IMG/VR virus record: IMGVR_UViG_3300025120_000038
DNA from: an uncultured virus (IMG/VR IMGVR_UViG_3300025120_000038)
Lineage: Duplodnaviria; Heunggongvirae; Uroviricota; Caudoviricetes
DNA: 20,000 nucleotides
Reading direction: 5' to 3' (one strand)
Each line of letters begins with the position of its first letter. Within the stretch, counting starts at the first letter, position 1. The translations under genes and the position numbers were made by a program. Shown here piece by piece: positions 1 to 14,511 of this stretch. The notes below the pieces were generated by a model. It made no database searches. It was not told the DNA's origin and saw nothing but the letters and a program-made list of their open reading frames with translations.

Positions 1-3000
1 ATTATCAAAAGGCGAAATGTAATATGCTACTCCCGCAGATGTACCCGCAGGCGTATTTAAACTTCCCGGATCAGCACCAAATGTAATAGGGGTCCATATT
101 AATGTTGGTTTTAAAGTTGCCGCCCCGGTAACTGTTATAGTTCCTGCGGTTGCTGTTGCCGGAACTGTAATTGGAATTTCATATTCAATATTATCTCCAT
201 TTTGAACTGCAACTGTTGTTCCAACATTTGTACTGGCAGGCATACCACTGGTATTAATTACAATATTATTATTGTCAATATAATAATTAGAAAAAGCCGA
301 TGCTACAAACTCCACTTTATTACCACCTACTGTATTAAATATTTGAGAAGCCGGAGTTATTGCTGAATTAGAAATAGTATCTATTGTGTTTACAGTTAAC
401 AAAGCAACAGTAAAAGCTAAATCAGCTCCGGTACCACTAATATCTAATGTTTGTATAGAATTAGAAGAACCAACTACATGGGACACTTGAAAAACCAATT
501 GCCCATCTGTAACTGCTACAGGTGATGTTATATTTAAATTACTTCCAGCTGCTTGCGTTAAAATAATTTCAGGTGGAGAAGGAATAGGGTCAGTAAATTT
601 AAATTGTGAATTTAATGGAGAAACAAATATGGCCCAAAAAATTTGATCTCCTTGTTTATTTATGCTCGTATTAGCCCCACTAAATATAGAATTAGCTGCT
701 GAACCTGATAATTGTAATGAAGTATTAAAAGTATCTGCTGTTGTAGGTATAGTTCCAATATTACCAATATCTGTTTCTATATATTCTAACTCCCACCCCT
801 CAGTACCTTCATAAGCTAAAGTGTTAAATTGTTTTACTAAAGATGGTGCGTCATTAAAAATAGGTATTACGTAAGATTCTTGAGTCGTAGAATTATAAAA
901 ATTGTTTCTAGTAACATTAGGACTATGATGCTGCCACAAGCTTCCTCCACTAAATGTATAATAAGTATTATTTAATGATAAACCTCCTTCTTGTTTAAAC
1001 CCTCTAAATGAGGTCCATCCGCCAGATCTATCATCAAAACATATTGTTAGATATCCTTGTGAGGCAGTAGCCGCATTTGTGTCACTATTTCCATCAAAAC
1101 CAGAGCCTATTAAAGTTAATTCATATAGTCTACTATATTCGTCGTAGGATCCTATAATTTGTGTAGAAGCTTTTAATGCATCTCTAAAAAAATCACCACA
1201 GCCAATTGTTGATATTTCTTGCAATTGACCTTGTACTAATCTTAGTACAACACCCCTATTACTATCCGTAAAATATTGTGAAAAGCCATAAGTTGCCCAA
1301 GATTGTGGGTTTTTAGCTATACCAAATTGACCGGCTAATGGTGCTATTGTACCTAAAAATTGTGTATTACTAGTAACTGGAACAGCTCCACCTTCTGCAG
1401 AATATATAAAATCTTTATCAATTGGTGATCTAGAAACTTTATCTTCTTGAAATATATTTATAGCAGTATCATCTGTAAATAACTTTTGTACAGAACCATC
1501 TTGAGGGTCTAAAGATATAGTTAAACCACCTTCCGATTCATTAAATTGATTTATATAATTTATACCAGTTCTTGAATTTAAAAATCCACTAGAATGTATT
1601 AATGTATTACCTCTTCTTTCTTCAGTAAAATTTTCTTGTACCACATAAGCTCTTACACCTACATCAAAAAATGGTTGATTAAAGCCTGCTTTAATTCTAT
1701 TAATTTCTATATGATAACCTGCTGTAAAAGTAAGTAATATACAATTAAAAAATTCTATATCAATTGCCGTTGCGGTTAGCTCAGATACTAATCCTCCAGT
1801 AGATGTTTCAAAAAATATATCTAATTCAGAACTAACAGGTTCTGTTTCATATACAGCTAAACCTGAACTAACTGCAGCTCCGCTATTATTAATTGTGGTA
1901 ACTAAAGCATCTCCTGATGGATTTGCAATAGACTGTACAGACGTTAATGCACCTGCAGTTGGCGAATAAACATTACTACCATCTACATACTTAGGATAAA
2001 CAGATACGTTACAAGGAGATATTGTTGCAGAAGTACTTGGTGGTATTGCTGCTGTTTGATCTCTAGGAATTTTATTTATACTATCTCCTAATCTTTCAAT
2101 GTTATTAGCACTTGTAATTACAGATATCCAATTATAATATTCTTGTTCTCTTTGCTTTACAACAACTCTATACGAATAAGCCCACTCAGGTATTTGCGTT
2201 AGATCAGCAAAAGCAATTCTTAATGCATTAAAAGCTGAAGTTGAACTAGCGTCTCCTGTGTTTGGTTCTACAAATACGGTATCTACTCCTGAGCTCGATA
2301 ATATTACAGGAGATTGTCTTCCAAATTTATCTGCTAAAACAATACCAACTTGATATGTACGTCTTGATTTTACAGATTGATTTTCTAAATTGGATGATAA
2401 TCTAGCAGATGTTTCTCCTGTTCTTGAAACAGTAAAAGCTATTTGTGGAATATCAAAATTTTGTAAAAAATTACCATAAACTAACCTACCTCCAGCTACA
2501 TCTTGAGCTTTAGCTTTTAATGGAACCGCATCATATACTCTTGTTAATTGATCAGGTGGTAATGTTCTAAAAGGGTCAGTTGATGAATAAGTAAAATTAA
2601 CAAAAGGCTCAGTAGTAACCTCAGAATCATTAACCACATACAATGTGCCCGAAATAGTATCTTTATAAATTAGCTCCACATTTTTAATACCATAACCTGT
2701 TGGAGTTGGTATTTGTAATTGTACTTGATTGATTGCATTAACAAATGTTTCTATTTCTCCAAAATTACCAATTGAAGTACTAATAGTATCAGGTTCATTT
2801 ATTCTAGAAAACAATATTGGGCTAAAAGGTGCTAAAGTACTATATTCATTATCTTCAAATTGCCATCTATATGAAAATCTTATTAGCTTGTCCTGCATAA
2901 AAGTTGAAGATATGCTTGATTCTTTTGTTGCAGCAACTAAAGTTGGTGCTTCATATGGAGCAAATTTACATACTGATATTAAATTATCAATATTAGAAGC

Positions 3001-3480
3001 AGAGGTATAATATGACACATTATTTCTAGCCGTAACTACATTAATTTTTCTTGGGTAATTTCTATTATCTGTCCAAAACAATAAATCATCTACAATATTA
3101 ATTCCAGTAATAGGATAATTTTGATGTAAATTTAATTGTTGAGAAACTATTAATGCTGTAGTTTGTTTAGTTTTTTGATCGTACTCAAAAAGCCCATGCT
3201 GCCCGGAATTTATTTCATTATAAGTACTATTATTAGTAACAAAAAAATATATTTTTTCAGTTCTACTATCACTAACCACTCCAATGCTTTTAGCATTAGC
3301 AATATTACAATTTGCTACTAATTCATTACCTAATAAATTTTCAATAGAACCTACATCAGACGCTTCTGATTGCCCAATATTAACATTGAATGCCTCTCGG
3401 TAATCACCCGCAGGTATTATTCTATCATCTAAATCACGGTTCATTTTACCGCCATTAAATATTCTTTTTATTTCTGGCAT
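1..3480 (-). CDS. Tail stabilisation/muzzle protein (crAss-like, P22 gp10-like), 3'-truncated by window edge, >=1160 aa
   Basis: Not in the ORF track, consistent with no stop before the window edge. ATG at 3480; spot translation gives MPEIKRIFNGGKMNRDLDDRIIPAGDYREAFNVNIGQSEASDVGSIENLLGNE. Internal motifs RVYDAVPLKAKAQDVAGGRLVYGNF, SVKSRRTYQVGIVLADKFGRQSPV, FQEDKVS, FGIAKNPQSWATYG..YFTDSNRGVVLRL match my recollection of this family. It follows the ring-protein genes, as in crAss-like synteny. Confidence 0.85.
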   Translation of the reverse strand, partial: MPEIKRIFNGGKMNRDLDDRIIPAGDYREAFNVNIGQSEASDVGSIENLLGNELVANCNIANAKSIGVVSDSRTEKIYFFVTNNSTYNEINSGQHGLFEYDQKTKQTTALIVSQQLNLHQNYPITGINIVDDLLFWTDNRNYPRKINVVTARNNVSYYTSASNIDNLISVCKFAPYEAPTLVAATKESSISSTFMQDKLIRFSYRWQFEDNEYSTLAPFSPILFSRINEPDTISTSIGNFGEIETFVNAINQVQLQIPTPTGYGIKNVELIYKDTISGTLYVVNDSEVTTEPFVNFTYSSTDPFRTLPPDQLTRVYDAVPLKAKAQDVAGGRLVYGNFLQNFDIPQIAFTVSRTGETSARLSSNLENQSVKSRRTYQVGIVLADKFGRQSPVILSSSGVDTVFVEPNTGDASSTSAFNALRIAFADLTQIPEWAYSYRVVVKQREQEYYNWISVITSANNIERLGDSINKIPRDQTAAIPPSTSATISPCNVSVYPKYVDGSNVYSPTAGALTSVQSIANPSGDALVTTINNSGAAVSSGLAVYETEPVSSELDIFFETSTGGLVSELTATAIDIEFFNCILLTFTAGYHIEINRIKAGFNQPFFDVGVRAYVVQENFTEERRGNTLIHSSGFLNSRTGINYINQFNESEGGLTISLDPQDGSVQKLFTDDTAINIFQEDKVSRSPIDKDFIYSAEGGAVPVTSNTQFLGTIAPLAGQFGIAKNPQSWATYGFSQYFTDSNRGVVLRLVQGQLQEISTIGCGDFFRDALKASTQIIGSYDEYSRLYELTLIGSGFDGNSDTNAATASQGYLTICFDDRSGGWTSFRGFKQEGGLSLNNTYYTFSGGSLWQHHSPNVTRNNFYNSTTQESYVIPIFNDAPSLVKQFNTLAYEGTEGWELEYIETDIGNIGTIPTTADTFNTSLQLSGSAANSIFSGANTSINKQGDQIFWAIFVSPLNSQFKFTDPIPSPPEIILTQAAGSNLNITSPVAVTDGQLVFQVSHVVGSSNSIQTLDISGTGADLAFTVALLTVNTIDTISNSAITPASQIFNTVGGNKVEFVASAFSNYYIDNNNIVINTSGMPASTNVGTTVAVQNGDNIEYEIPITVPATATAGTITVTGAATLKPTLIWTPITFGADPGSLNTPAGTSAGVAYYISPFDN

Positions 3481-6061: not shown

Positions 6062-7657
6062 TTAAGCTTTAAATAATACGAAATTATTAGCAGCTTGTGT
6101 GATAAGACATCTTTCACTTAAGTAATTGATGTTCATCTCATCGATATCAGAAGTAGGTGAACCAGTTCCAACAGATCCTGTAATCCAAGACTTGTTTTTT
6201 CTGTTTTCCGTTTCTGATGCTCTATACCTAATGTGCAAGAATGGTCTTTTAATGTTTTGACCTAATTGTTGGTCATAAACTGTAGAAGTACCAGCAGGTA
6301 CTAATACACCTTCAACATCTCCAAAACCACCTCTTGTTGACCAATCATTTAAATATTTCCAGTCAGTTTTATAGAAGTCATAAGAACCTCTTCTGTATCC
6401 TGTAAATCCTAAATTAAGGGCCATGTCAGAGCTGTTGTTAAATACACCATAAGATGTACCATGCGAGTGGTTAGCTGTTCCAGCATAATTACCATTTTGC
6501 ATTGCAAGAATGTCATCAATTTCTAAAGATAGTTCTCTATTTAAGAATAACATATTTTCTTCAATTGCTCCTTGCTTATCTAGTTGTTTAAGAACGTTGT
6601 CAAAGTCAGTTAATGCACCACCACCTGCTTGCGCAGCTGCTTGTCCACCAAATCCTGAATAAACATTTCCTCTTGCCTCTAGAGCTTCAAAGAAACCTTC
6701 AGTACCTCTTGCCCCTTGTGCGGCTAAGCTACCTCCAAAAGTTCCAAGTGTAATTGCAGCACCACCGGCTACTTTTTTCACACCTTCGACCATTGACATT
6801 TCCATGTGGTCTTCCCATCTAAGTCTTACTTCATGCTCAGATTTAATATACCATAAATATCCACTTGCTCCATTCTCAGAAGTAACTTCAATCCAACCAA
6901 TCTGAGCAGTGTCAGATCCATTAATTGAATAGTTTTCTTTTAAGATAATAGGCGCATTAGTAAACGTAGCATATCCTGGATCTAAGCTTTCAGTAAAGTT
7001 TCCAGTACCTTTAGCAAATTCAGACCCATAAGCAATAGCAGTTACTCTATCTGCAGCACCAATAGCGCCGTGAGGAGCATATGCTTGAATTTGGAACATT
7101 TGTCCACCTGTAGTTGCACCAGCACCTGCACCAACGTTAGTACAAACTCCTTTTATTACAGCACCAGTTCCACCAACAGCAGAAGTTGCAGTTGTTTGAA
7201 TCTGAACCATTACAGTTTGGCCGATTTTAAAGTTTACTTGTGATGTTTGTGTAGCAGGACTAACCCCTAAACTTGAGGGTTGTGCAGCGGGTACTTCAAA
7301 ATTAAGTACCGCACCAGATGCAGCGCCAGCTCCAATAGCTGCTTGTCCACCTCCAGCGGCAGGCATTACGCCCGCGTTACCTCTTGGTATTACGTTTGCG
7401 TATCTAGTATGTAATCTTCCTTGCTCAGTCCAGATAATTTGATCTGAAGTGGAAGGCATCTCAGCAGAAACCATACGAAGGAAAGAACCAATAGATCTGT
7501 TTCCATATCTTTCGACTTCTTTTTCGTATACGTCTGGTAAAAATTGTTGTGTCCATTGATCAAAAGCCGCAGCTGTGAAATCAATGTAGTTCCCAGAGTA
7601 AAGTGTTTTAGTCTGGGTTGGTTGTAAAGCGGCGGGTACGCCAGCAGTAAAAGCCAT
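6062..7657 (-). CDS. Major capsid protein (HK97 fold, crAss-like)
   Basis: 531 aa. Motifs QQFLPDVYEKEVERYGNRSIGSFLRMVSAEMP..SDQIIWTEQGRLH, YGSEFAKG, INGSDTAQIGWIEV, GYLWY, GFTGYRRGSYDFYKTDWKYLND, RPFLHIRYR, LSERCL. Follows portal and scaffold. Confidence 0.92.
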   Translation of the reverse strand: MAFTAGVPAALQPTQTKTLYSGNYIDFTAAAFDQWTQQFLPDVYEKEVERYGNRSIGSFLRMVSAEMPSTSDQIIWTEQGRLHTRYANVIPRGNAGVMPAAGGGQAAIGAGAASGAVLNFEVPAAQPSSLGVSPATQTSQVNFKIGQTVMVQIQTTATSAVGGTGAVIKGVCTNVGAGAGATTGGQMFQIQAYAPHGAIGAADRVTAIAYGSEFAKGTGNFTESLDPGYATFTNAPIILKENYSINGSDTAQIGWIEVTSENGASGYLWYIKSEHEVRLRWEDHMEMSMVEGVKKVAGGAAITLGTFGGSLAAQGARGTEGFFEALEARGNVYSGFGGQAAAQAGGGALTDFDNVLKQLDKQGAIEENMLFLNRELSLEIDDILAMQNGNYAGTANHSHGTSYGVFNNSSDMALNLGFTGYRRGSYDFYKTDWKYLNDWSTRGGFGDVEGVLVPAGTSTVYDQQLGQNIKRPFLHIRYRASETENRKNKSWITGSVGTGSPTSDIDEMNINYLSERCLITQAANNFVLFKA

Positions 7658-7677
7658 AGTGTTTTGATTTTAAGTTG

Positions 7678-9000
7678 TTATTTATTCCATTTAATGCGCA
7701 ACTTGTCGGAAGAATTCCCAGATACTACTCTAATCGTATCACCTGAATTTGTAGTTACAGATGAACCATCAGCTCTTGGATCCATATTAATATTTTTAGC
7801 TTTCTTTGCGGATTGTTTTATAGCGTCGGCACGGCCTTGCTCATAAAAGTGATTCGCAATTTTATCTGCATTCTGTGCAGTAAATAAAGCTTTATGATAT
7901 TTATTTAAATCTGTTAAGTTACCTTTGTTATCAGAGTATTGATTTAAAAAATTATTAATATCTGATTGAAACTCTTTTGTTTTTTTAGGATTTTCTATTT
8001 TAAATCTATATTTGTTTTCTCCAACCTTAAAATCAAAACCTTTGAAATCATTGTTAAAAACATCGTTAGTTTTATTTAAAAAATTTTCCTTTAATTTAGT
8101 TTCTTCTTTCGATAATTGCTGTTGATTATTATAATACTCTAAAGCTTTTGCGTATTTTGGATCAATATCTTTTTCTTTTCTTAACTTAAGATCAGTATAA
8201 TATTGGTCTTTTACTTTTTTAAAAGTTTTTTGAGCATTAAATAATTCTTCTTTAAAAGCTAATTGCTTAGCTTTAATATCGGACGGATCGTCCAATTCTT
8301 TATCGTAAGCAAAGTTTTTATCCATTAAAAAAGTAATATCTTCTTTGTCTAGATGAGGTTTAGTAAATTCATAATATTCTTTTAATAAAGTAATATTATC
8401 AATTTTGTCTAAGTCTCTATTAAGTTTTGCATAGTCTTCTACAGTTCCCCCTGTGTCTTCTATAAACTTAATTAATTTACCTACGTCTTCAGGTAGCTCT
8501 TGTGTTTTTGCTTCCTGTAATATTTTTTCAGGTTCCGGTGCGGGCTCGGCACTTTTAGTGCTTGGTTCCACTCCCACCTTGTTAGTTGTATCTTCTTCAT
8601 CATTTACTAATTCTAAAGGAGATTCAGTGGTTTCTTTATTTTCTTCTAAAGTTATTTCTTGCTTAACTTCTTCAGCGTTTTCGGGGGTTTCCCGTACTTC
8701 TGATCCCACGCTTGACAATCCCACTTCGGATCGTTCATCGCGTAACACTTCCTCCTTTGTTTCTGGCTCTTGAACGGCATCTGTTTTTTCTTGTTTAAGT
8801 TCTTCTGTTTTTTGTTCTTTAACAGGGGGTTTGTCTAAATTAACTTTATAGACTCCATCTTCTTGGAGTCCATACTCTTTAGCAACCTCGCCTTTTTCAA
8901 CTGCCTGTTCTAAAACTGCAGCTTCTTTTTCTTGAGGTGATTTAGGAGTTTCAGTATCAACTGATCTTACTTCCACTTTTTCTTCAACTTGGTTTTCCAT
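7678..9000 (-). CDS. Putative capsid scaffolding protein (acidic, disordered N-terminal half)
   Basis: 440 aa located between portal and MCP. E/K-rich N-terminus; conserved-looking F.EDTGGTVEDY.KLN, FKGFDFKVGE and IANHFYEQGRADAIK...KNINM motifs. Confidence 0.75.
   Translation of the reverse strand: MENQVEEKVEVRSVDTETPKSPQEKEAAVLEQAVEKGEVAKEYGLQEDGVYKVNLDKPPVKEQKTEELKQEKTDAVQEPETKEEVLRDERSEVGLSSVGSEVRETPENAEEVKQEITLEENKETTESPLELVNDEEDTTNKVGVEPSTKSAEPAPEPEKILQEAKTQELPEDVGKLIKFIEDTGGTVEDYAKLNRDLDKIDNITLLKEYYEFTKPHLDKEDITFLMDKNFAYDKELDDPSDIKAKQLAFKEELFNAQKTFKKVKDQYYTDLKLRKEKDIDPKYAKALEYYNNQQQLSKEETKLKENFLNKTNDVFNNDFKGFDFKVGENKYRFKIENPKKTKEFQSDINNFLNQYSDNKGNLTDLNKYHKALFTAQNADKIANHFYEQGRADAIKQSAKKAKNINMDPRADGSSVTTNSGDTIRVVSGNSSDKLRIKWNK
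8481..8603 (-). CDS. Candidate nested gene (+1 frame in scaffold): 40-aa basic ArfA-like peptide MMKKIQLTRWEWNQALKVPSPHRNLKKYYRKQKHKSYLKT
   Basis: Hand translation from ATG 8603 to TAG 8481. Coincides with a local GC island (31/60 G+C at 8521-8580). Ends in an RNxKKYxRKxKHK motif recalled from small phage/bacterial ArfA-like peptides. Confidence 0.6.
   Translation of the reverse strand: MMKKIQLTRWEWNQALKVPSPHRNLKKYYRKQKHKSYLKT
8652..8780 (-). CDS. Candidate nested gene (+1 frame in scaffold): 42-aa peptide MPFKSQKQRRKCYAMNDPKWDCQAWDQKYGKPPKTLKKLSKK
   Basis: Hand translation from ATG 8780 to TAA 8652. A-rich leader ACTTAAACAAGAAAAAACAG; GC island (30/60 at 8701-8760). N-terminus resembles the widespread MPFKSxxQRR small phage protein family (recall). 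Confidence 0.65.
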   Translation of the reverse strand: MPFKSQKQRRKCYAMNDPKWDCQAWDQKYGKPPKTLKKLSKK

Positions 9001-9031
9001 AATTTTATATAATATAATAGTTGTTTAATAT

Positions 9032-11476
9032 TTATGATGATTCGAATCTGCCCATGTCAAATCCACCTAAAGTATCATTACCTTTAGATTCAAAATCTTT
9101 TACAGGTTTATCTGTATTAGGTGCTCCACTTATTTTCCCTGAAGGTACTTTAGTTTCTTCCCTGATTTCTTCTCGCTGGAGCATTGATGCGTTATTAGTT
9201 TGTGCTAACTCCATTCTAGATTTTAACTCTAGTTCTTTTAATTGTACATTTAAATTAAATTCGTATTGCATGAGCTCTTTTTTAGCTCTAGTTTCTAATT
9301 CCATCTTCTTTATTTCCATTTCATTTTCCGCTGTGGATAATTGAATTTTAGAAGTTGTTTTTATTTGTTCAGCATCAGCTTTTGCAGATTCCATTGCAAT
9401 TTGTGCTTCTCCTTGTGCCTTAGCTTGGGCTGCACTTGCTGCCTGTGCCTGCGCTTGATCTGATTGTTGTTTAGCTAATCTTCTAAATTTAAGTAATTGA
9501 TTAGCTAGTTTTATATTTTTAACTTCTCTAATATCAATCGCATCTTCTAAAAATATATTTTCTTTTGATAAAGCCATTTGTATATTACTTTCTAATATAG
9601 CTTTTTCATCTGCATCAGGTTCAAGTTCTAAAAATATACCAAAATCATGCAAATTAAGATTTTTAACTTCCTCTAATGACCCTACTGAAAATTGTCCTAG
9701 TGCATCTATCAGAGCTTCTTTAGTTGGATGAAATTCTAACACATCTTTAAACCTTAAAGAAATAGCTTCAGCTAAACTAGTAGTAATAAACATACTACTA
9801 TATAATATATGTCTTGTAGCAACATTACTATTTGCAGCTGCTAATTTTTGCACACCCACTAATGAATTTGGATCAGGATCAGAACCATCTCTAGCTTCAT
9901 TTAGTCCAGTTACATCTCTAATCATTTGAATATATTGATTGTATGCACCAACTAATACTTGTATTTGTTGACCACCACTTCCTGGTAATTCAGTAATTGG
10001 GACTTTACCTGGATTAGGATCTCCTTCTACATTTAGCGATCTACCTATAATAGATCCCGTCTGGAAGTACATATTTAATGCTTCTTGAGGGTTATAATTA
10101 TTTCCGTTACCTAAATCTATTTCAGCTAAGCCATCAGCATCTAAATAAACACCTGAGGGTGTCATTCTTTGTATAGCTTGTTGTAATTTTAAATGTGTTA
10201 ATTGAATTAGATCTGCATAAGGAGTCATTTTAGCAACAAGAGAATTAATACTCCCTTTATATATTCTTGGAGCGCTTGCAATATAATTCATCATTACTTT
10301 ATTTATATTTGCGCTAGGCCTAACCATGTTATCAGCTTTTTTCCACTTTAATAATTCCTGTGTACCTAAAACTAATACTCCCTCATATACAACTTCTCTC
10401 GTTTGTTTTACTTTTTCAAATCTTGTATTTTCATCTACAGGTGGATCAAAAGTGTCGTCTTTTTCAATTGCTTTTTTAGCACCTGTTGATACTTCTTTTA
10501 TTTTATATACGTCATGTTCCCATGTTTTCCAATTAAAATATAACAACGTAACCGTATTGTTTTGGGATAATGAATCATTTAAATAATAATCTTGAGGATT
10601 ATAAGTATTATATACATTCCAATTAGAACCTTTTTTAGTCATAGATTCTATTTGTTCATTTGTTAAATTAGGGAATTCTTTTTTTAACTCGTTAATATTT
10701 ATATTTTTAACTTCTCCAAAATAATAACAATCTGTAAAATTAGGGTCTTCTGTATAGGACCATACTAAGTTAGCAGGATCAACATATTCTACGGTTACAC
10801 CATCAGTATTATTAAACCCATGCTTAGCACACCCAATACCAATTGTAGCTAAGTCGTAATCAATACGCTTTTTAGCGTCGTCGTATTTATTACATTTAAA
10901 AATATTTTCAATTGCTTGTTCTTCCGCTTGTTCTATACCTTGCTTGTAATTAAGTTGCATATATAATTCAAGCTCTTCTGTGTTTGCTGGCAAATCATTA
11001 ACAGCAAAATTTCTAGCTGAAACTCCTAACTTTTTTTCAATATTTAAAAGCAAATCTGCTGTGTTTAAATCTTGCTGAACATCATTAACAAACTTAGTTC
11101 TTTTACCTGTTGATATGTTATCTTGACCAACAGCTTTTATTGTAAAAGTTCTATCTTGCATTCCGTTTACTACAATATCAATAAATTTTGGTATTATAGG
11201 TACAGGTTTCCAGTCTAAATTTAAATAAGATAAATCACCATTAATTGCAAATTCATCTTTATATTTACGAATAGATTGTTCTCCCCTTGCATATAATCTT
11301 AATCGGTGACATTCTTGACGAGAATTATAAAACTTTCCGACACCATTATTGTCTTTGTTAAACCACTCTTGCTCAATTGCTTTAGCTACAGATAATCCAT
11401 ATTCTACTGTGATTTTAATGGAATCTGAAACTGCCTGTGTAGGAAAGGCGTAACTTTGCATTTTATTTTTTGCCAT
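9032..11476 (-). CDS. Portal protein (crAss-like)
   Basis: 814 aa directly downstream of terL. Motifs LRLYARGEQSIRKYKDE..INGDLSYLNLDWKPVPIIPKFIDIVVNG, QLTHLKLQQ, MIRDVTGLNEARDG, LVGVQKLAAANSN; coiled-coil C-terminal barrel. Confidence 0.92.
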   Translation of the reverse strand: MAKNKMQSYAFPTQAVSDSIKITVEYGLSVAKAIEQEWFNKDNNGVGKFYNSRQECHRLRLYARGEQSIRKYKDEFAINGDLSYLNLDWKPVPIIPKFIDIVVNGMQDRTFTIKAVGQDNISTGKRTKFVNDVQQDLNTADLLLNIEKKLGVSARNFAVNDLPANTEELELYMQLNYKQGIEQAEEQAIENIFKCNKYDDAKKRIDYDLATIGIGCAKHGFNNTDGVTVEYVDPANLVWSYTEDPNFTDCYYFGEVKNININELKKEFPNLTNEQIESMTKKGSNWNVYNTYNPQDYYLNDSLSQNNTVTLLYFNWKTWEHDVYKIKEVSTGAKKAIEKDDTFDPPVDENTRFEKVKQTREVVYEGVLVLGTQELLKWKKADNMVRPSANINKVMMNYIASAPRIYKGSINSLVAKMTPYADLIQLTHLKLQQAIQRMTPSGVYLDADGLAEIDLGNGNNYNPQEALNMYFQTGSIIGRSLNVEGDPNPGKVPITELPGSGGQQIQVLVGAYNQYIQMIRDVTGLNEARDGSDPDPNSLVGVQKLAAANSNVATRHILYSSMFITTSLAEAISLRFKDVLEFHPTKEALIDALGQFSVGSLEEVKNLNLHDFGIFLELEPDADEKAILESNIQMALSKENIFLEDAIDIREVKNIKLANQLLKFRRLAKQQSDQAQAQAASAAQAKAQGEAQIAMESAKADAEQIKTTSKIQLSTAENEMEIKKMELETRAKKELMQYEFNLNVQLKELELKSRMELAQTNNASMLQREEIREETKVPSGKISGAPNTDKPVKDFESKGNDTLGGFDMGRFESS

Positions 11477-11478
11477 AT

Positions 11479-13713
11479 TTATTTTATTATCTCACTTCTT
11501 GATCCTTCGTTTCTATATTTTGATAGTTGAAAAGGAACTTTTGTAACTGTTTTTTCCGCTCTAGGACGGTATAAATGTTTTCGACAAGCCATTATAGCTA
11601 GGCCGCTGCTTATTGAAGCATCATGGGCTGTTCTACGAGATATATCAAAACGTGCCCAATCTTCAAGGGTTCTTTGGAAAAACATGTTTCCATTGTTTTC
11701 ACCAATTTTACCCACATATTCTTCAATATAAGATTCAATAGCAGAGGCATGGGCTTGCTTAATGTCTTCTGAAGAGTTAGGTATACCTCCTAATTCTAAT
11801 TCTGTTTTAGATAAGTTACCAACTAATTTATCAGGTCTATTCATAGAATAACCTCTATACCCTCTTCTTTTAAAATGATATAGTAATCTTGGTTTGTTAT
11901 TTTCCGCTAATAAAGGCATTCCATAAAATATACAAGCCATTAATACATCTTCAAAAAATATTTCAGCTGTTTGTGGCCTTGCTATATATTCTAAAAAAAA
12001 CTTACTATTTGGTACATCACTAACCATTGAAAATGTAGTTAACCCGTGTAAAGAACCATTTGATCCTCTACCACCTACTGTACCTGATATATCGTAAGGA
12101 TCACAGCCAAATGCACCCAACCCGTTATTAGCCGGATATTTTAATGTGTTTTTTATAACAATACTATTTTGCATAAGTGTTGGAGGAATCCACGATATTC
12201 TAAATCTACCATTAGCATTAGGTGTCCATATAACTTTTGTATCTTTAATGCCGTTTGCCCATCCAAAAGAGCCTTTTGATATATGCCCTTTCATTACCAT
12301 TTCTTCATTAAAATCTATTTGCTCATAAATTTTAGTTAAGTTAAATAATGAATTTAAAGTTTCATCTCTGAAAGCGTGTTTTTCAGATCTTGGAAATTGT
12401 CTATAATATTCATTTAAAGCATCAGAATCTTTTTTTAATCCTTCAACTTCATTTTCCCAGTGTTCAATGACCCCCGTATAGATGAGTTCACCATCAATTC
12501 CCTCAGCCGGTTTTGGTGGTGTATCGAATACAGGGTACCCATACTTATCGATAAATCCTTCGAAGCCCCATTCCATAGGAAGGAACAAAGCATATAATCC
12601 ACTTGTAGTCTGGCCATTGCGATTTCTATTTTCGACATTTGAATTATTATATAATTTTTTAAAGTTATCTCCTCCTTTTGCTAATGCATTAGAAGTAGAT
12701 CCCATCATACATTTGCCTACTATTTTTGAACCGAGCCTGAGACACGTTTTTGTGACCCTCCAGTTGTTGAGGATGTTGTCGGGCCTTTCCCATTTGCCCG
12801 ATTCATCATGGACGAGGAGTTGTAACTTTTCCCCATCATATGAATTGTCCCCGGTATTCTTCCAGTCGATTGTTGTATCGAGCCCCTTTGCCATTCCTTC
12901 ATCTTCCGTTTGTGTTTCTCGAATGGAATTTCTGGTAAGTCTTCTTGAGGGTATCTTATAGGAGAGCTCGGTTTTGGGGCGCTCCATACCGTCTTGAATT
13001 GGCTTGAAGAAGAATGGGTAGTTGATGGAGATTGGTACCACCTTGTCTGTAAACATCTTCTTCGCATCTGCTCCAGTCTTTGATAATATCCCAAACCTAG
13101 AGTCTTTTGAAGTTGTAGCCTGGTTGACGCACTCGGATGATGCCATAAAACTAAATCCAGACCTCCTGTTTTTAAGGTAGCACATTCCATAAGACCTGGA
13201 ATCTGCCTTGCAAGCCTCCCAGAAGTAGTAAAATATTCTATTTGCTTGTCTAAAGTCGGGTGACCCCACGTCGATCTTAGTCCAGTTGAGGTATATATAG
13301 TGTGATCCTGTAATGTAACACGGGGTACCGTTGCACATGAACCAGTAACCATCATTACGATAATTAAATTCATCGTCAATGTATTGGTAATATTCCTCTT
13401 TATTTTTTTCTGGATGCTTAGTGAAATCATATATGCTTTTTATTTTGTTTAGTGAATTAGGCTTTAATCTTTTTTTAAAATATTGATTTTCTTTTTTAAG
13501 GTCTTGACCTTCAATTATTTGAGGAATTTTAGGTAAACCTACCTTGAGACCTTGAATTTCATATATTTCTCCTAATGTACCATCTTTACTTATAATAACA
13601 CAATCTAATTCTTTATTGTAACCATATTTAAATTTTTTATGCTTATTAAAGTTTTTAACTGATCTATCATTAAGATGCTCATCGTATATATGATATAAAT
13701 TTTGTTTATACAT
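11479..13713 (-). CDS. terL: Terminase large subunit
   Basis: 744 aa. Walker A-like YLKNRRSGFS, Walker B LLVHDESGKW, coupling motif MGSTSN, RNase H-like nuclease motifs GCDPYD, LAENN, HDASISSG. Confidence 0.95.
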   Translation of the reverse strand: MYKQNLYHIYDEHLNDRSVKNFNKHKKFKYGYNKELDCVIISKDGTLGEIYEIQGLKVGLPKIPQIIEGQDLKKENQYFKKRLKPNSLNKIKSIYDFTKHPEKNKEEYYQYIDDEFNYRNDGYWFMCNGTPCYITGSHYIYLNWTKIDVGSPDFRQANRIFYYFWEACKADSRSYGMCYLKNRRSGFSFMASSECVNQATTSKDSRFGILSKTGADAKKMFTDKVVPISINYPFFFKPIQDGMERPKTELSYKIPSRRLTRNSIRETQTEDEGMAKGLDTTIDWKNTGDNSYDGEKLQLLVHDESGKWERPDNILNNWRVTKTCLRLGSKIVGKCMMGSTSNALAKGGDNFKKLYNNSNVENRNRNGQTTSGLYALFLPMEWGFEGFIDKYGYPVFDTPPKPAEGIDGELIYTGVIEHWENEVEGLKKDSDALNEYYRQFPRSEKHAFRDETLNSLFNLTKIYEQIDFNEEMVMKGHISKGSFGWANGIKDTKVIWTPNANGRFRISWIPPTLMQNSIVIKNTLKYPANNGLGAFGCDPYDISGTVGGRGSNGSLHGLTTFSMVSDVPNSKFFLEYIARPQTAEIFFEDVLMACIFYGMPLLAENNKPRLLYHFKRRGYRGYSMNRPDKLVGNLSKTELELGGIPNSSEDIKQAHASAIESYIEEYVGKIGENNGNMFFQRTLEDWARFDISRRTAHDASISSGLAIMACRKHLYRPRAEKTVTKVPFQLSKYRNEGSRSEIIK
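12435..12638 (-). CDS. Candidate nested ORF in +1 frame of terL (67 aa), function unknown
   Basis: ORF track entry in the same +1 frame as 12720..13430. Overlaps a GC island (30/60 at 12481-12540 vs 10/60 at 12301-12360). Confidence 0.3.
   Translation of the reverse strand: MSKIEIAMARLQVDYMLCSFLWNGASKDLSISMGTLYSIHHQNRLRELMVNSSIRGSLNTGKMKLKD
12720..13430 (-). CDS. Candidate nested ORF in +1 frame of terL (236 aa) with possible lipoprotein signal peptide
   Basis: 236 stop-free codons in an AT-rich genome. terL uses CTC/GTC/ATC/GGC-type codons here (29/60 G+C at 12781-12840 vs 10/60 at 13441-13500). N-terminus KKIKR...LTMNLIIVMMVTGS-C, with the Cys codon at 13337-13335. Confidence 0.5.
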   Translation of the reverse strand: MISLSIQKKIKRNITNTLTMNLIIVMMVTGSCATVPRVTLQDHTIYTSTGLRSTWGHPTLDKQIEYFTTSGRLARQIPGLMECATLKTGGLDLVLWHHPSASTRLQLQKTLGLGYYQRLEQMRRRCLQTRWYQSPSTTHSSSSQFKTVWSAPKPSSPIRYPQEDLPEIPFEKHKRKMKEWQRGSIQQSTGRIPGTIHMMGKSYNSSSMMNRANGKGPTTSSTTGGSQKRVSGSVQK

Positions 13714-13958
13714 TATTTTATACGATTTTCAACACCTAGAAAAGTTTTCTTTTCTTTGTTATTATTTTTTTTTTCAGAAAGTTCTTCAATTTTTTCTATT
13801 ATTTTTAAAGAATCTTCTATAGCAACCCATTTTGCTTGTGCTGCCATCTTAGCTTTTTCAGGATCAAGTTCAACTAAATCTATAGTTTGTCTAATTACTT
13901 TGTCTAATTCAACTAATGCTTTTTCAGCTGCTGAAATTACTCTTTTCCTTCGGTCCAT
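13713..13958 (-). CDS. Putative terminase small subunit
   Basis: 81-aa helical protein directly upstream of terL and coupled to it (TAATG at 13713). Assignment by position only. Confidence 0.5.
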   Translation of the reverse strand: MDRRKRVISAAEKALVELDKVIRQTIDLVELDPEKAKMAAQAKWVAIEDSLKIIEKIEELSEKKNNNKEKKTFLGVENRIK

Positions 13959-14511
13959 AGTTGATTGTTATTTGATTTGATAAAATACGATATAATTTTT
14001 GACCTTCAATATTAAATTCATATTCAGAATTAGGCGTAAACCCCACCACATTGCCTTTAGATACTCCTAAACGCGTTAATTCTTCATTTGAGTATATTAG
14101 CTCCCCATAAAGATTTATGTCCGTATAAAGGCTCCATTCATCATTTCTAAATACTGGCTTTACAAAACAATATCCCGGTAATGCTTTCCATTCATTTTCT
14201 TTTTTGTATCCAAATATTTGATCAGATGATACTATAAATTTATTTTCATCTATAAAACCGGCGGAATTTCTTTCATTGTTTCCTTGATCAAGCCATTTTC
14301 TAAATACATTATGATGTACAATAACTTGATCTCCTTCTTTTATAGTGGTTTTTTGGTTAGCTGGTGTTTTAATTACCGTGCCAATACGATTTACATAATG
14401 ATAATCTCTTTCGGTAATTTCTGTATTAACAATTAATTCTTTATTGTTTATATTAATTTTATTGTTATAACGATTTTCAGTAGATATGATATAGTCAAAT
14501 AATGATTGCAT
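13924..14511 (-). CDS. GroES/Cpn10-like co-chaperonin, apparently two tandem GroES-like domains
   Basis: 195 aa. Half 1: SLFDYIIS...IGTVIKTP....IKEGDQVIV. Half 2: ALPGYCFVKP...GELIYSN....GVSKGNVVGF...EYEFNIEGQKLYRILSNQI. Both echo the GroES pattern G.V.....V..GD.V.F....G..Y.I. Confidence 0.6.
   Translation of the reverse strand: MQSLFDYIISTENRYNNKININNKELIVNTEITERDYHYVNRIGTVIKTPANQKTTIKEGDQVIVHHNVFRKWLDQGNNERNSAGFIDENKFIVSSDQIFGYKKENEWKALPGYCFVKPVFRNDEWSLYTDINLYGELIYSNEELTRLGVSKGNVVGFTPNSEYEFNIEGQKLYRILSNQITINYGPKEKSNFSS

Follow-up and report, generated by a model that had tools for sequence, protein, structure and literature searches.

Does a 42-codon reading frame that lies wholly inside a longer phage gene encode a protein of its own and, if so, where might that protein act? 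This question is raised by positions 8652..8780 (minus strand) of a 20,000-nucleotide stretch from an uncultured virus of the Caudoviricetes (IMG/VR record IMGVR_UViG_3300025120_000038), referred to here as the window. The frame runs from an ATG at 8780-8778 to a TAA at 8654-8652 and is contained in a longer same-strand ORF of 440 codons, 9000..7678, in the +1 frame relative to that host ORF (i.e. 9000-8780 = 220 = 3x73+1). Translation returned exactly the 42-aa peptide of the original prediction, MPFKSQKQRRKCYAMNDPKWDCQAWDQKYGKPPKTLKKLSKK, and the ATG at 8780 was, as had been claimed, the first start after an in-frame stop even when GTG and TTG were counted. The GC figures given earlier were reproduced (30/60 at 8701-8760 and 13/48 at 8604-8651), with the nested ORF as a whole having a GC content of 61/129 (47%) as compared to 32% in the host gene and 34% across the window. 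The host codons that had been singled out as odd (CGC GAT GAA CGA TCC GAA GTG GGA TTG) were found as quoted. A second +1-frame ORF (8603..8481) was rejected as a gene and was not conserved in the nearest relatives.

The host gene (7678..9000, minus strand) occupies the scaffold position of a head module, between the portal and likely capsid genes. Immediately upstream and transcribed in the same direction is the portal gene (9032..11476, minus strand; phrog_6547, E 1.3e-128; P22_portal), and the large terminase gene is located at 11479..13713 (minus strand; phrog_6681, E 1.1e-169). Immediately downstream is a gene for a 531-aa protein (6062..7657, minus strand) that matched phrog_13704 'virion structural protein' (E 1.2e-88) and is, by gene order, likely the major capsid protein. 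The scaffold assignment of the host gene fits this portal-to-capsid position, and no Pfam or PHROG family matched the 440-aa protein. Host residues 159-439 were approximately 35% identical to the portal-adjacent protein of the Flavobacterium elemo phages and of MW202828; the elemo-phage homologues carry the annotation 'structural protein'. The host frame is translated across the overlap, as it exhibited normal codon periodicity on both sides, was open throughout and had an N-terminus that is conserved among homologues; no host-frame stop was present across the overlap in any nested copy. Host residues 74-116 (DAVQEPETKEEVLRDERSEV...), which share their bases with the nested gene, form an acidic linker with a net charge of approximately -9.

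Conservation was examined in two scans of viral contigs. In the first, 80 loci were kept of 100 confirmed relatives, and all 80 contained an intact homologous ORF that begins with ATG, encodes 36-68 aa and lies in frame +1 relative to a longer ORF. In the second, the ORF was intact at 79 of the 80 kept loci, with the remaining locus (L161) having ATT for ATG; such retention goes far beyond what chance would give. The pooled scans gave 133 distinct copies, 129 of which were nested, always in the +1 frame, and 128 of which began with ATG. These copies were distributed between open frames of 150-599 aa (93 copies) and of at least 600 aa (35 copies), together with the single ATT copy and four copies without a long overlapping frame. 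Nested copies had two types of host, either the scaffold-position gene of approximately 400 aa or a giant gene of more than 1000 codons, and both types are head-module or virion genes. As anticipated, homologous genes kept the ATG and the Cys and Trp codons in their +1 frame, with M1, P2, F3, K4, Q8, C12, W20 and C22 invariant among 68 distinct nested peptides and W25 at least 90% conserved. One strong match per genome was found in each of four complete genomes examined. Intact single copies of the nested gene are conserved across a large clade of marine Bacteroidota-type podophages.

The same nested ORF was intact and unannotated in MW202828 and elemoA, and the expectation that standard annotation misses it was borne out by the two GenBank records inspected, which annotate the giant protein gene alone over the nested ORF. 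A comparison with the scaffold genes of related flavophages had been suggested; in the Flavobacterium elemo phages and MW202828, the nested copy lies within a giant virion protein gene rather than the scaffold homologue. An apparently obligatory small gene escapes standard gene callers in an abundant marine phage group, which includes 68 cultured Flavobacterium 'elemo' phage records, and the existence of a cultured host-phage pair makes the question directly testable by host-synonymous knockouts. Of the words sampled, at least half were present in each of fourteen DNA-type sequencing runs and 17-23% in six metatranscriptome runs. Contigs from RNA libraries gave short, discontinuous coverage: one of 213 nt covers 8482-8693, the nested start is spanned by none, and they are uninformative on transcription boundaries and translation.

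Selection in the two frames was compared along 75 minimum-spanning-tree edges, which are not fully independent and were set against a uniform mutation expectation; of the 644 differences, 275 were synonymous in the nested frame and changed the host residue as compared to 84.8 expected (binomial p = 2.5e-50), whereas 90 were host-synonymous and changed the nested residue as compared to 144.9 expected. Host-synonymous changes were depleted as strongly as doubly non-synonymous ones (ratio of 0.62 each). Many conserved nested codons had entropies of 0, 0 and approximately 0.9 at positions 1, 2 and 3, respectively. Across 51 host genes, host codon position 3 was the most variable (1.0-1.6) except over the nested ORF, where values of 0.42-0.93 were lower than those of position 1, such that host codon periodicity was normal in the sequences flanking the overlap and inverted inside it. 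Giant hosts had 113, 48 and 36 differences at host positions 1, 2 and 3 in the overlap as compared to 769, 603 and 879 in one flank and 606, 493 and 755 in the other. The host codons over the nested start read xAT GCC [A/G]TT CAA in 76/76 copies, GCC being 8.7% of the Ala codons elsewhere in these genes. Nested Cys22 was encoded by TGC in 73/76 copies, which we attribute to avoidance of a TAA stop in the host frame. Purifying selection acts on the protein sequence of the nested gene. Over the overlap, the host frame has only been maintained as an open, acidic and hydrophilic stretch; it was without amino-acid-level selection in the substitution test, yet some constraint on codon choice was present.

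Conservation at the nucleic-acid level (e.g. an RNA structure, an internal promoter or a packaging signal), with neither peptide mattering, would account for a GC-rich island (47% versus 32%) within an AT-rich gene but is given almost no credence by the strict three-base periodicity of variation in the nested frame, the frame-keeping indels that retain protein-like patterns, the lack of an Rfam match at E<=1, a start region without excess RNA stability and the occurrence of homologous proteins in GC-rich phages of unrelated nucleotide sequence. No compensatory base-pair covariation accompanied by a loss of codon periodicity was seen among the homologues. A second alternative is that the conserved element is a motif of the host frame (DA[VI]Q..[VLM]L...GLQEV), such as a capsid-targeting or protease site common to the scaffold and the giant cargo protein, with the +1 ORF as a by-product. 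This would fit the recurrence of the motif in two unrelated host proteins and also the codon choices within it. The Pro2 codon was CCG or CCA in 76/76 copies and never CCC or CCT, the latter forming 53% of Pro codons elsewhere, so that the host residue is always Val or Ile; for Lys4 and Gln8, the codon version yielding an acidic host residue was preferred. These choices suggest that some selection acts on the host frame too. A host-frame motif is, however, hardly credible as the source of the pattern. Host-synonymous changes were not favoured, having the same ratio as doubly non-synonymous ones, and host third positions were frozen, as seen for the GCC codon (76/76 versus a baseline of 8.7%) and the invariant T of xAT. 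Wherever a host residue is invariant, an invariant residue of the nested frame dictates it, indels of 8 and 4 codons left the nested protein pattern preserved, and the nested peptide has 607 relatives in its own frame.

The putative translation initiation region of the nested gene (8781..8800, minus strand) lacks a Shine-Dalgarno sequence, is weakly structured and is A-rich, as had been noted, with 13 A among the 20 nt preceding the ATG. Folding of the start region gave a minimum free energy of -5.7 kcal/mol, and 179/200 shuffled sequences folded at least as well. Among 76 distinct homologues, the frequency of A was 0.96, 0.91 and 0.89 at positions -13, -12 and -11, respectively, 0.92 at -6 and 0.78 at -3. 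Upstream A positions are positive initiation determinants reported for Flavobacterium johnsoniae, and the conserved adenines at -13, -12, -11, -6 and -3 match this Bacteroidia initiation signal (Baez et al. 2019). The window leader itself has A at -2, -4 to -9, -11 and -12 and C at -3 and -13; these two cytosines count against the best explanation, as do the ATT codon of L161 and the lack of a Pfam, PHROG or PDB relative. On a late head-module mRNA, there would be two sites of ribosome initiation, one at the host ATG (9000) and an independent one at the internal ATG (8780), the latter preceded by an A-rich and unstructured region of Bacteroidia style.

Frameshifting or slippage could instead bring the +1 frame into translation without its own ATG, so that the MPFKS segment is fused either behind the host N-terminus or ahead of the host C-terminus. 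Two library proteins appear to have such an arrangement at the DNA level: P0005 fuses the host N-terminus (KVDLT) directly to FKSKAQ, and P0003 passes from MPFKS...LPKRL into host-like EEEVTVIQEI. Among the best 150 of the 607 family matches, the domain was also near the N-terminus in 15 and internal in 5. Frameshifting is nonetheless very unlikely. The ATG was kept in 128/129 nested copies, and an in-frame stop was located 0-6 codons before it in 101/133 copies (directly before it in 8), so that a shift could scarcely occur early enough to take in the conserved MPF. The domain began at the start of the protein (i.e. residues 1-3) in 130 of the same best 150 family matches, and the adenines upstream are arranged as at a start site. 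The 42-codon ORF is very probably a true coding gene, lying within a scaffold-position head gene in the +1 frame.

A profile (A2) was used to define the MPFKS family and was searched among 1.84 billion representative proteins. The 'widespread uncharacterised family' that the original prediction had invoked does exist, with 607 matches at E<=1e-3, 52 of them at E<=1e-10, and without a Pfam-A or PHROGs model. The opening residues among the best 150 matches were MPFKS in 73, MPFKN in 14, MPFVS in 14 and MPFRS in 10, and independently called family proteins begin MPF[KRQV][SN]. By profile similarity, the nested peptide belongs to a widespread, uncatalogued mini-domain family that is normally found at the extreme N-terminus of independently called phage proteins. 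The description of the family as small and standalone was correct in part: standalone ORFs were seen in the DNA at L089, L094 and L085, but most members carry the domain as an N-terminal module, in proteins ranging from 43 to 4059 aa. The family seems to require a free N-terminal (Met-)Pro-Phe, a need that would explain why the nested copy has its own start codon instead of an in-frame fusion.

Scanning against Pfam and PHROGs gave no model for the domain, whether the query was the window peptide, either of two GenBank homologues, any of 68 nested homologues or a family member (40+22). The only recurrent Pfam match, to Choline_sulf_C (9/68 members, best E 6e-4), was weak and was put down to chance or composition. 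When the 42-aa peptide was used as a single query in a word-index search, no match was obtained in the 23-74 aa range. The nearest named neighbour of the window peptide was an Atlas cluster with 15% DUF3008 members (score of 0.87). DUF3008 proteins are small phage and bacterial proteins that presumably share an MP.KSKAQ-like N-terminal start with the MPFKS peptide; the DUF3008 HMM (PF11450) did not match the window peptide, the two GenBank homologues or the 68 nested homologues at E<=10. A literature search for the nested gene and the MPFKS motif found no description, although absence of one is not proven. A mini-domain family of more than 600 members is newly defined, for which Pfam and PHROGs hold no model.

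The partners of the domain bear on where the product might act. Among 40 scanned family members, 8 carried Phage_Mu_F, and further partner domains were peptidases (C39 and C70 among them), ADP-ribosyltransferase, LigT, Zeta toxin-like, lysozyme and DUF2213. The gene could be real with a product acting in the infected cell (e.g. as an anti-defence factor or regulator) and not inside the capsid, a rather unlikely reading that is consistent with the typical conflict effectors among these partners (ADP-ribosyltransferase, Zeta toxin-like, C39/C70 peptidases and LigT) and with the small unknown genes that surround the standalone copies L089 and L094. Nested copies, however, were always within head or virion genes, and head genes were located within 2.5 kb of 2/3 standalone copies. 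Effector fusions also characterise the MuF-containing polyvalent phage proteins, which are virion-delivered according to Iyer et al. (2017; PMC5512222), such that action in the infected cell and inside the capsid are not mutually exclusive. The link to these systems is that the mini-domain is found at, or close to, the N-terminus of long proteins that combine Phage_Mu_F with peptidase, ADP-ribosyltransferase, LigT and Zeta-like domains, and that the giant genes hosting the nested copy encode structural proteins of the virion; the window copy differs in being a free-standing 42-aa protein and not a polyprotein domain. Since no Pfam model matches the mini-domain, it is not among the polyvalent-protein domains in Pfam; it could be one of the 40 novel domains of Iyer et al. 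(2017).

From the fusions and the location, the most likely role, proposed tentatively, is that of a small basic capsid-interior protein that would associate with packaged DNA or head-internal cargo and leave the capsid with them. The mini-protein would be co-produced with the protein, scaffold or giant cargo, in whose gene the nested copy lies. As the domain is at the N-terminus of MuF-type polyvalent head proteins, the role of the 42-aa form could explain a recurring module of virion-delivered effectors. The T4 capsid targeting sequence, a short N-terminal element of internal head proteins that are ejected with the DNA, is unrelated to the mini-domain in sequence and may be comparable in function, as a module placed at the N-terminus of cargo proteins.

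Nested phage genes have precedents. In phage lambda, Rz1 is a small gene entirely inside the longer gene Rz, on the same strand, in the +1 frame and with its own start codon; its product is a lipoprotein spanin subunit that partners the host gene product in lysis. The gene described here is likewise wholly internal, on the same strand, in the +1 frame and with its own start codon, but would encode a basic CX9C mini-protein within a head-module gene in which the overlapping host frame is an unconstrained linker. Out-of-frame dual coding also occurs in phiX174 (E in D, and K/B in A), where the short frame is usually taken as the newcomer. Codon choice is shaped by both frames in both systems; here, however, the short frame appears to represent an older widespread family, as judged from its 607 matches, and the host linker frame a younger reading. 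The original suggestion that an independent gene was absorbed into a low-complexity linker fits a host frame without amino-acid-level selection over the overlap, although the evolutionary direction that it implies is interpretative. The locus provides a very clean natural case of dual coding, in which selection acts on the protein of the short frame and the long frame amounts to scarcely more than an open acidic spacer, and could serve as a benchmark for overlapping-gene detectors.

A more elaborate and quite improbable proposal is that the nested gene and its covering linker form a dual-frame cassette that has moved between scaffold-position and giant cargo genes in the same relative frame, with the basic mini-protein entering the procapsid bound to the acidic segment that the other frame encodes. 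If true, the two frames of such a cassette would specify a cargo and a packaging tag that match each other. The median net charge was +11 for nested peptides and -9 for the acidic host segments. The best nested-ORF tree required six host switches, only one of which was forced by well-supported branches. A complex prediction pairing the host protein and peptide alignments scored 0.00 and returned no verdict.

The window peptide starts with MPFKS, contains Gln8, has a cysteine pair (Cys12 and Cys22; CX9C), Trp20 and Trp25 and a Lys-rich tail, and carries a net charge of approximately +10. An AF2 model, of only moderate confidence (mean pLDDT of 71.1, pTM of 0.39), predicted a helical hairpin with helices at residues 6-15 and 22-29. 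The product would be a helical hairpin, possibly stapled by the CX9C pair, followed by the Lys-rich tail. No PDB entry was found by sequence-profile search at E<=10, and when the AF2 model was compared to BFVD with Foldseek, 12 entries were matched at that threshold, none of them at E<=0.001. At the position of the Leu-Pro tail motif (K.LP[EK][RK]), the window and its nearest relatives (L003, L004 and L006) have ...KYGKPPKTLKK and not ...SLPKK, with the tail of all four peptides remaining Lys-rich.

An ORF of 42 codons was located on the minus strand of the window from an ATG at 8780, the first start codon downstream of an in-frame stop, to a TAA at 8654-8652, and its translation (i.e. MPFKSQKQRRKCYAMNDPKWDCQAWDQKYGKPPKTLKKLSKK) is a basic two-cysteine mini-protein. 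The nested frame is +1 relative to an enclosing ORF of 440 aa (9000..7678, minus strand; the host gene), so that the ORF, start and frame of the original prediction were correct. The nested ORF has a GC content of 47%, as compared to 32% in its host gene and 34% over the window, and the predicted local values were reproduced (30/60 at 8701-8760, dropping to 13/48 at 8604-8651). A second +1-frame ORF of 40 aa (MMKKIQLTRWEW...) lies downstream in the same frame (8481-8603, minus strand); mentioned in the original prediction as the next nested ORF, it is broken by stops and not conserved in sequence in the nearest relatives (loci L003, L004 and L006), and is probably not a gene.

All genes in this neighbourhood are on the minus strand. 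PHROG matches identified a large terminase (11479-13713), a portal (9032-11476) and a 531-aa virion structural protein (6062-7657) with further structural proteins beyond it. As the order is terminase, portal, host gene and structural proteins, the host gene occupies the classical scaffold position; Pfam and PHROG scans assigned it to no family. Just upstream of the terminase gene, a 195-aa ORF (13924-14511) matched phrog_13932, annotated as co-chaperonin GroES (E 4.9e-25), whilst an open-ended ORF of 1160 aa (1-3480) matched phrog_14478 and the crassvirus muzzle protein (i.e. crAss_MUZ and crAss_MUZ_C), the latter pointing to tail parts in common with crAss-like viruses. The 24 nt before the ATG of the scaffold-position gene were almost invariant and AT-only among loci L003-L082 from our IMG/VR scans, with A at -13, -8, -5 and -3 in 88-100% of 58 loci and T at most other positions, indicating that the portal-scaffold junction is strongly conserved. 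Marine and seawater metagenome runs contained sequence near-identical to 7600-9100 of the window; 14 DNA-type runs had half or more of the sampled words, and the run with the most may derive from the source sample.

Copies of the nested gene were sought in named phages and in IMG/VR. A tblastn search of GenBank phages with the nested peptide matched 70 records, including 68 of Flavobacterium 'elemo' phages. Residues 159-439 of the host protein exhibited ~35% identity to a portal-adjacent gene product of the same phages, with the two sets of matches falling at different sites. The conservation proposed for scaffold genes of relatives was borne out in part: MW202828 and elemoA contain an intact +1-frame ORF of 43 or 42 codons (MPFKSKQQMKACYAQNNPKWDC... 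and MPFKSKAQMKACYSQDNPKWDC...), but inside a giant structural gene (~3,860 or 3,670 codons) and not in their scaffold-position genes, which are shorter (340 and 358 aa). In both records the giant CDS is the sole feature annotated over the nested gene, in agreement with the expectation that standard annotation misses it. A first IMG/VR scan, with an alignment of three peptides as query, confirmed 100 relatives. In each of the 80 loci kept, an unbroken ORF of 36-68 aa begins with ATG and is +1 relative to a longer open frame. The distinct nucleotide versions number 76; 58 of them lie 33-75 codons into a scaffold-position gene of ~365-445 aa, and the other 18 are found within a gene of >1000 codons (a giant host), hundreds of codons from its start. 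When small standalone family members served as seeds for a second scan, 527 relatives were confirmed; 76 of the 80 kept were likewise nested, three had their own ORF (L089 and L094, 66-67 aa, on contigs of 56-57% GC; L085, 358 aa) and one at a contig end was ambiguous (L087). Pooling of the scans gave 133 distinct copies: 128 nested with ATG, four without a long overlapping frame and one nested in a giant host (L161:2501-2632) with ATT in place of the conserved ATG (IPFKSQAQRK...) and the remainder of the ORF intact. Changes of host gene numbered six on the best tree, only one being forced by supported branches. Five whole records were searched and each of the four complete ones contained one strong match; in the record of L066 (i.e. 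G005), the giant gene with the full copy also has, ~650 nt upstream of that copy, a weak match limited to the first 11 profile positions (8206-8238, E 0.0096).

Selection on the two frames was examined by codon position. Of the conserved residues in the nested frame, Pro2, Lys4, Gln8 and Cys12 had zero entropy at codon positions 1 and 2 and 0.8-1.0 at position 3, a coding-frame signature. Differences were then counted along a minimum spanning tree (76 sequences, 75 edges, 29 core codons) against an expectation from all possible non-stop mutations. Among 644 differences, 275 were nested-synonymous and host-non-synonymous (84.8 expected), 90 were host-synonymous and nested-non-synonymous (144.9 expected) and 253 altered both proteins (408 expected), with a binomial P of 2.5e-50 for the discordant classes (275 versus 90). 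Host-synonymous changes were depleted exactly as those altering both proteins (observed/expected 0.62 each), and therefore no protection of the host amino-acid sequence is seen within the overlap. Across 51 complete hosts of the scaffold type, the third host codon position was the most variable (1.0-1.6 bits) except in blocks over the nested ORF, where it dropped to 0.42-0.93, below position 1. Giant hosts share this inversion: differences at host positions 1/2/3 number 113/48/36 in the overlap, as compared to 769/603/879 in the upstream flank and 606/493/755 in the downstream flank. At the nested start, the host codons were xAT GCC [A/G]TT CAA in 76/76 sequences, GCC being only 8.7% of alanine codons elsewhere in these genes. 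Where codons are synonymous in the nested frame, their usage bears traces of the host frame: TGC encodes Cys22 in 73/76, which on our reading would avoid a host TAA; CCT and CCC are never used for Pro2, so that a host Val or Ile is retained; and Lys4 and Gln8 prefer the codon giving a host acidic residue. Median net charge was +11 for nested peptides and -9 for host segments from the same DNA. These sequence patterns argue for true dual coding, with the nested protein specified and the host segment kept open, acidic and hydrophilic, and the nested ORF is very probably a real gene.

The 68 distinct nested peptides were built into a profile, which matched 607 proteins among 1.84 billion representatives at E<=1e-3 (52 at E<=1e-10), in agreement with the MPFKS family named in the original prediction. 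The family is not only small and standalone, as described there: 43 of the best 150 proteins are <=70 aa, but lengths range from 43 to 4059 aa and 20 exceed 500 aa. The N-terminal MPFKS module (i.e. the mini-domain) begins at residue 1-3 in 130 of the best 150; in the other 20 it is internal or near the N-terminus, mostly starting NPFVS after a hydrophobic stretch (e.g. ..LVVNPFVSEAQRRACYA; library proteins P0087, P0088, P0100, P0109, P0111, P0113, P0120, P0122, P0137, P0141 and others), suggesting that processing exposes Pro-Phe as the N-terminus, and the mature domain may always begin Pro-Phe. A Pfam scan of 40 members found no model covering the mini-domain and no family at all in 23. Partners in this set were Phage_Mu_F (8/40), C39/C70 peptidases, ADP-ribosyltransferase, a Zeta toxin-like domain, 2'-5' RNA ligase, YkuD, phage tail lysozyme, ParB_N, DUF6321, DUF3140, DUF5661, DUF4269 and DUF2213; Iyer et al. 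2017 (PMC5512222) describe the same repertoire for virion-delivered polyvalent proteins. Source names were 'hypothetical protein' or none. Atlas returned only unnamed clusters (44-47 aa, score 0.93) and a weak DUF3008 lead (0.87), which was confirmed by no HMM scan. AF2 on the alignment predicted two helices (6-15 and 22-29, mean pLDDT 71), which would place Cys12 and Cys22 on opposite arms of a hairpin.

As the family is far wider than the linker and the linker is without sequence-level selection, the most economical reading, and that of the original prediction, is an independent gene enclosed by the low-complexity linker, an order of events that we infer. For the product, we tentatively favour a small basic capsid-interior protein associating with packaged DNA or cargo, because of the MuF-type head-delivered fusions, the constant location in head-module or virion genes and the strong positive charge. 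The main alternative, that the product acts in the infected cell, is compatible with a capsid-interior role.

Upstream of the nested ATG, A was present in 96, 91 and 89% of the 76 sequences at -13, -12 and -11, in 92% at -6 and in 78% at -3. Baez et al. 2019 (PMC6847099) describe A at -3, -6, -12 and -13 as positive initiation determinants in Flavobacterium johnsoniae, based on ribosome profiling and reporter assays in these Shine-Dalgarno-less bacteria. These adenines are supportive and not decisive, as A-richness is partly due to Lys/Glu/Gln host codons; the window's own leader has C at -3 and -13. The start region is weakly structured, 179/200 shuffles folding at least as well. In most copies a stop closes the nested frame 0-6 codons upstream of the ATG, and in eight it directly adjoins the ATG, so that a frameshift product could hardly include the conserved MPF. 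Two library proteins resemble DNA-level frame fusions: in P0005 a host N-terminus (..KVDLT) is joined directly to FKSKAQ..., and in P0003 MPFKS...LPKRL continues as host-like EEEVTVIQEI. They may be natural indel variants, products of misassembly or signs of a switch between frames.
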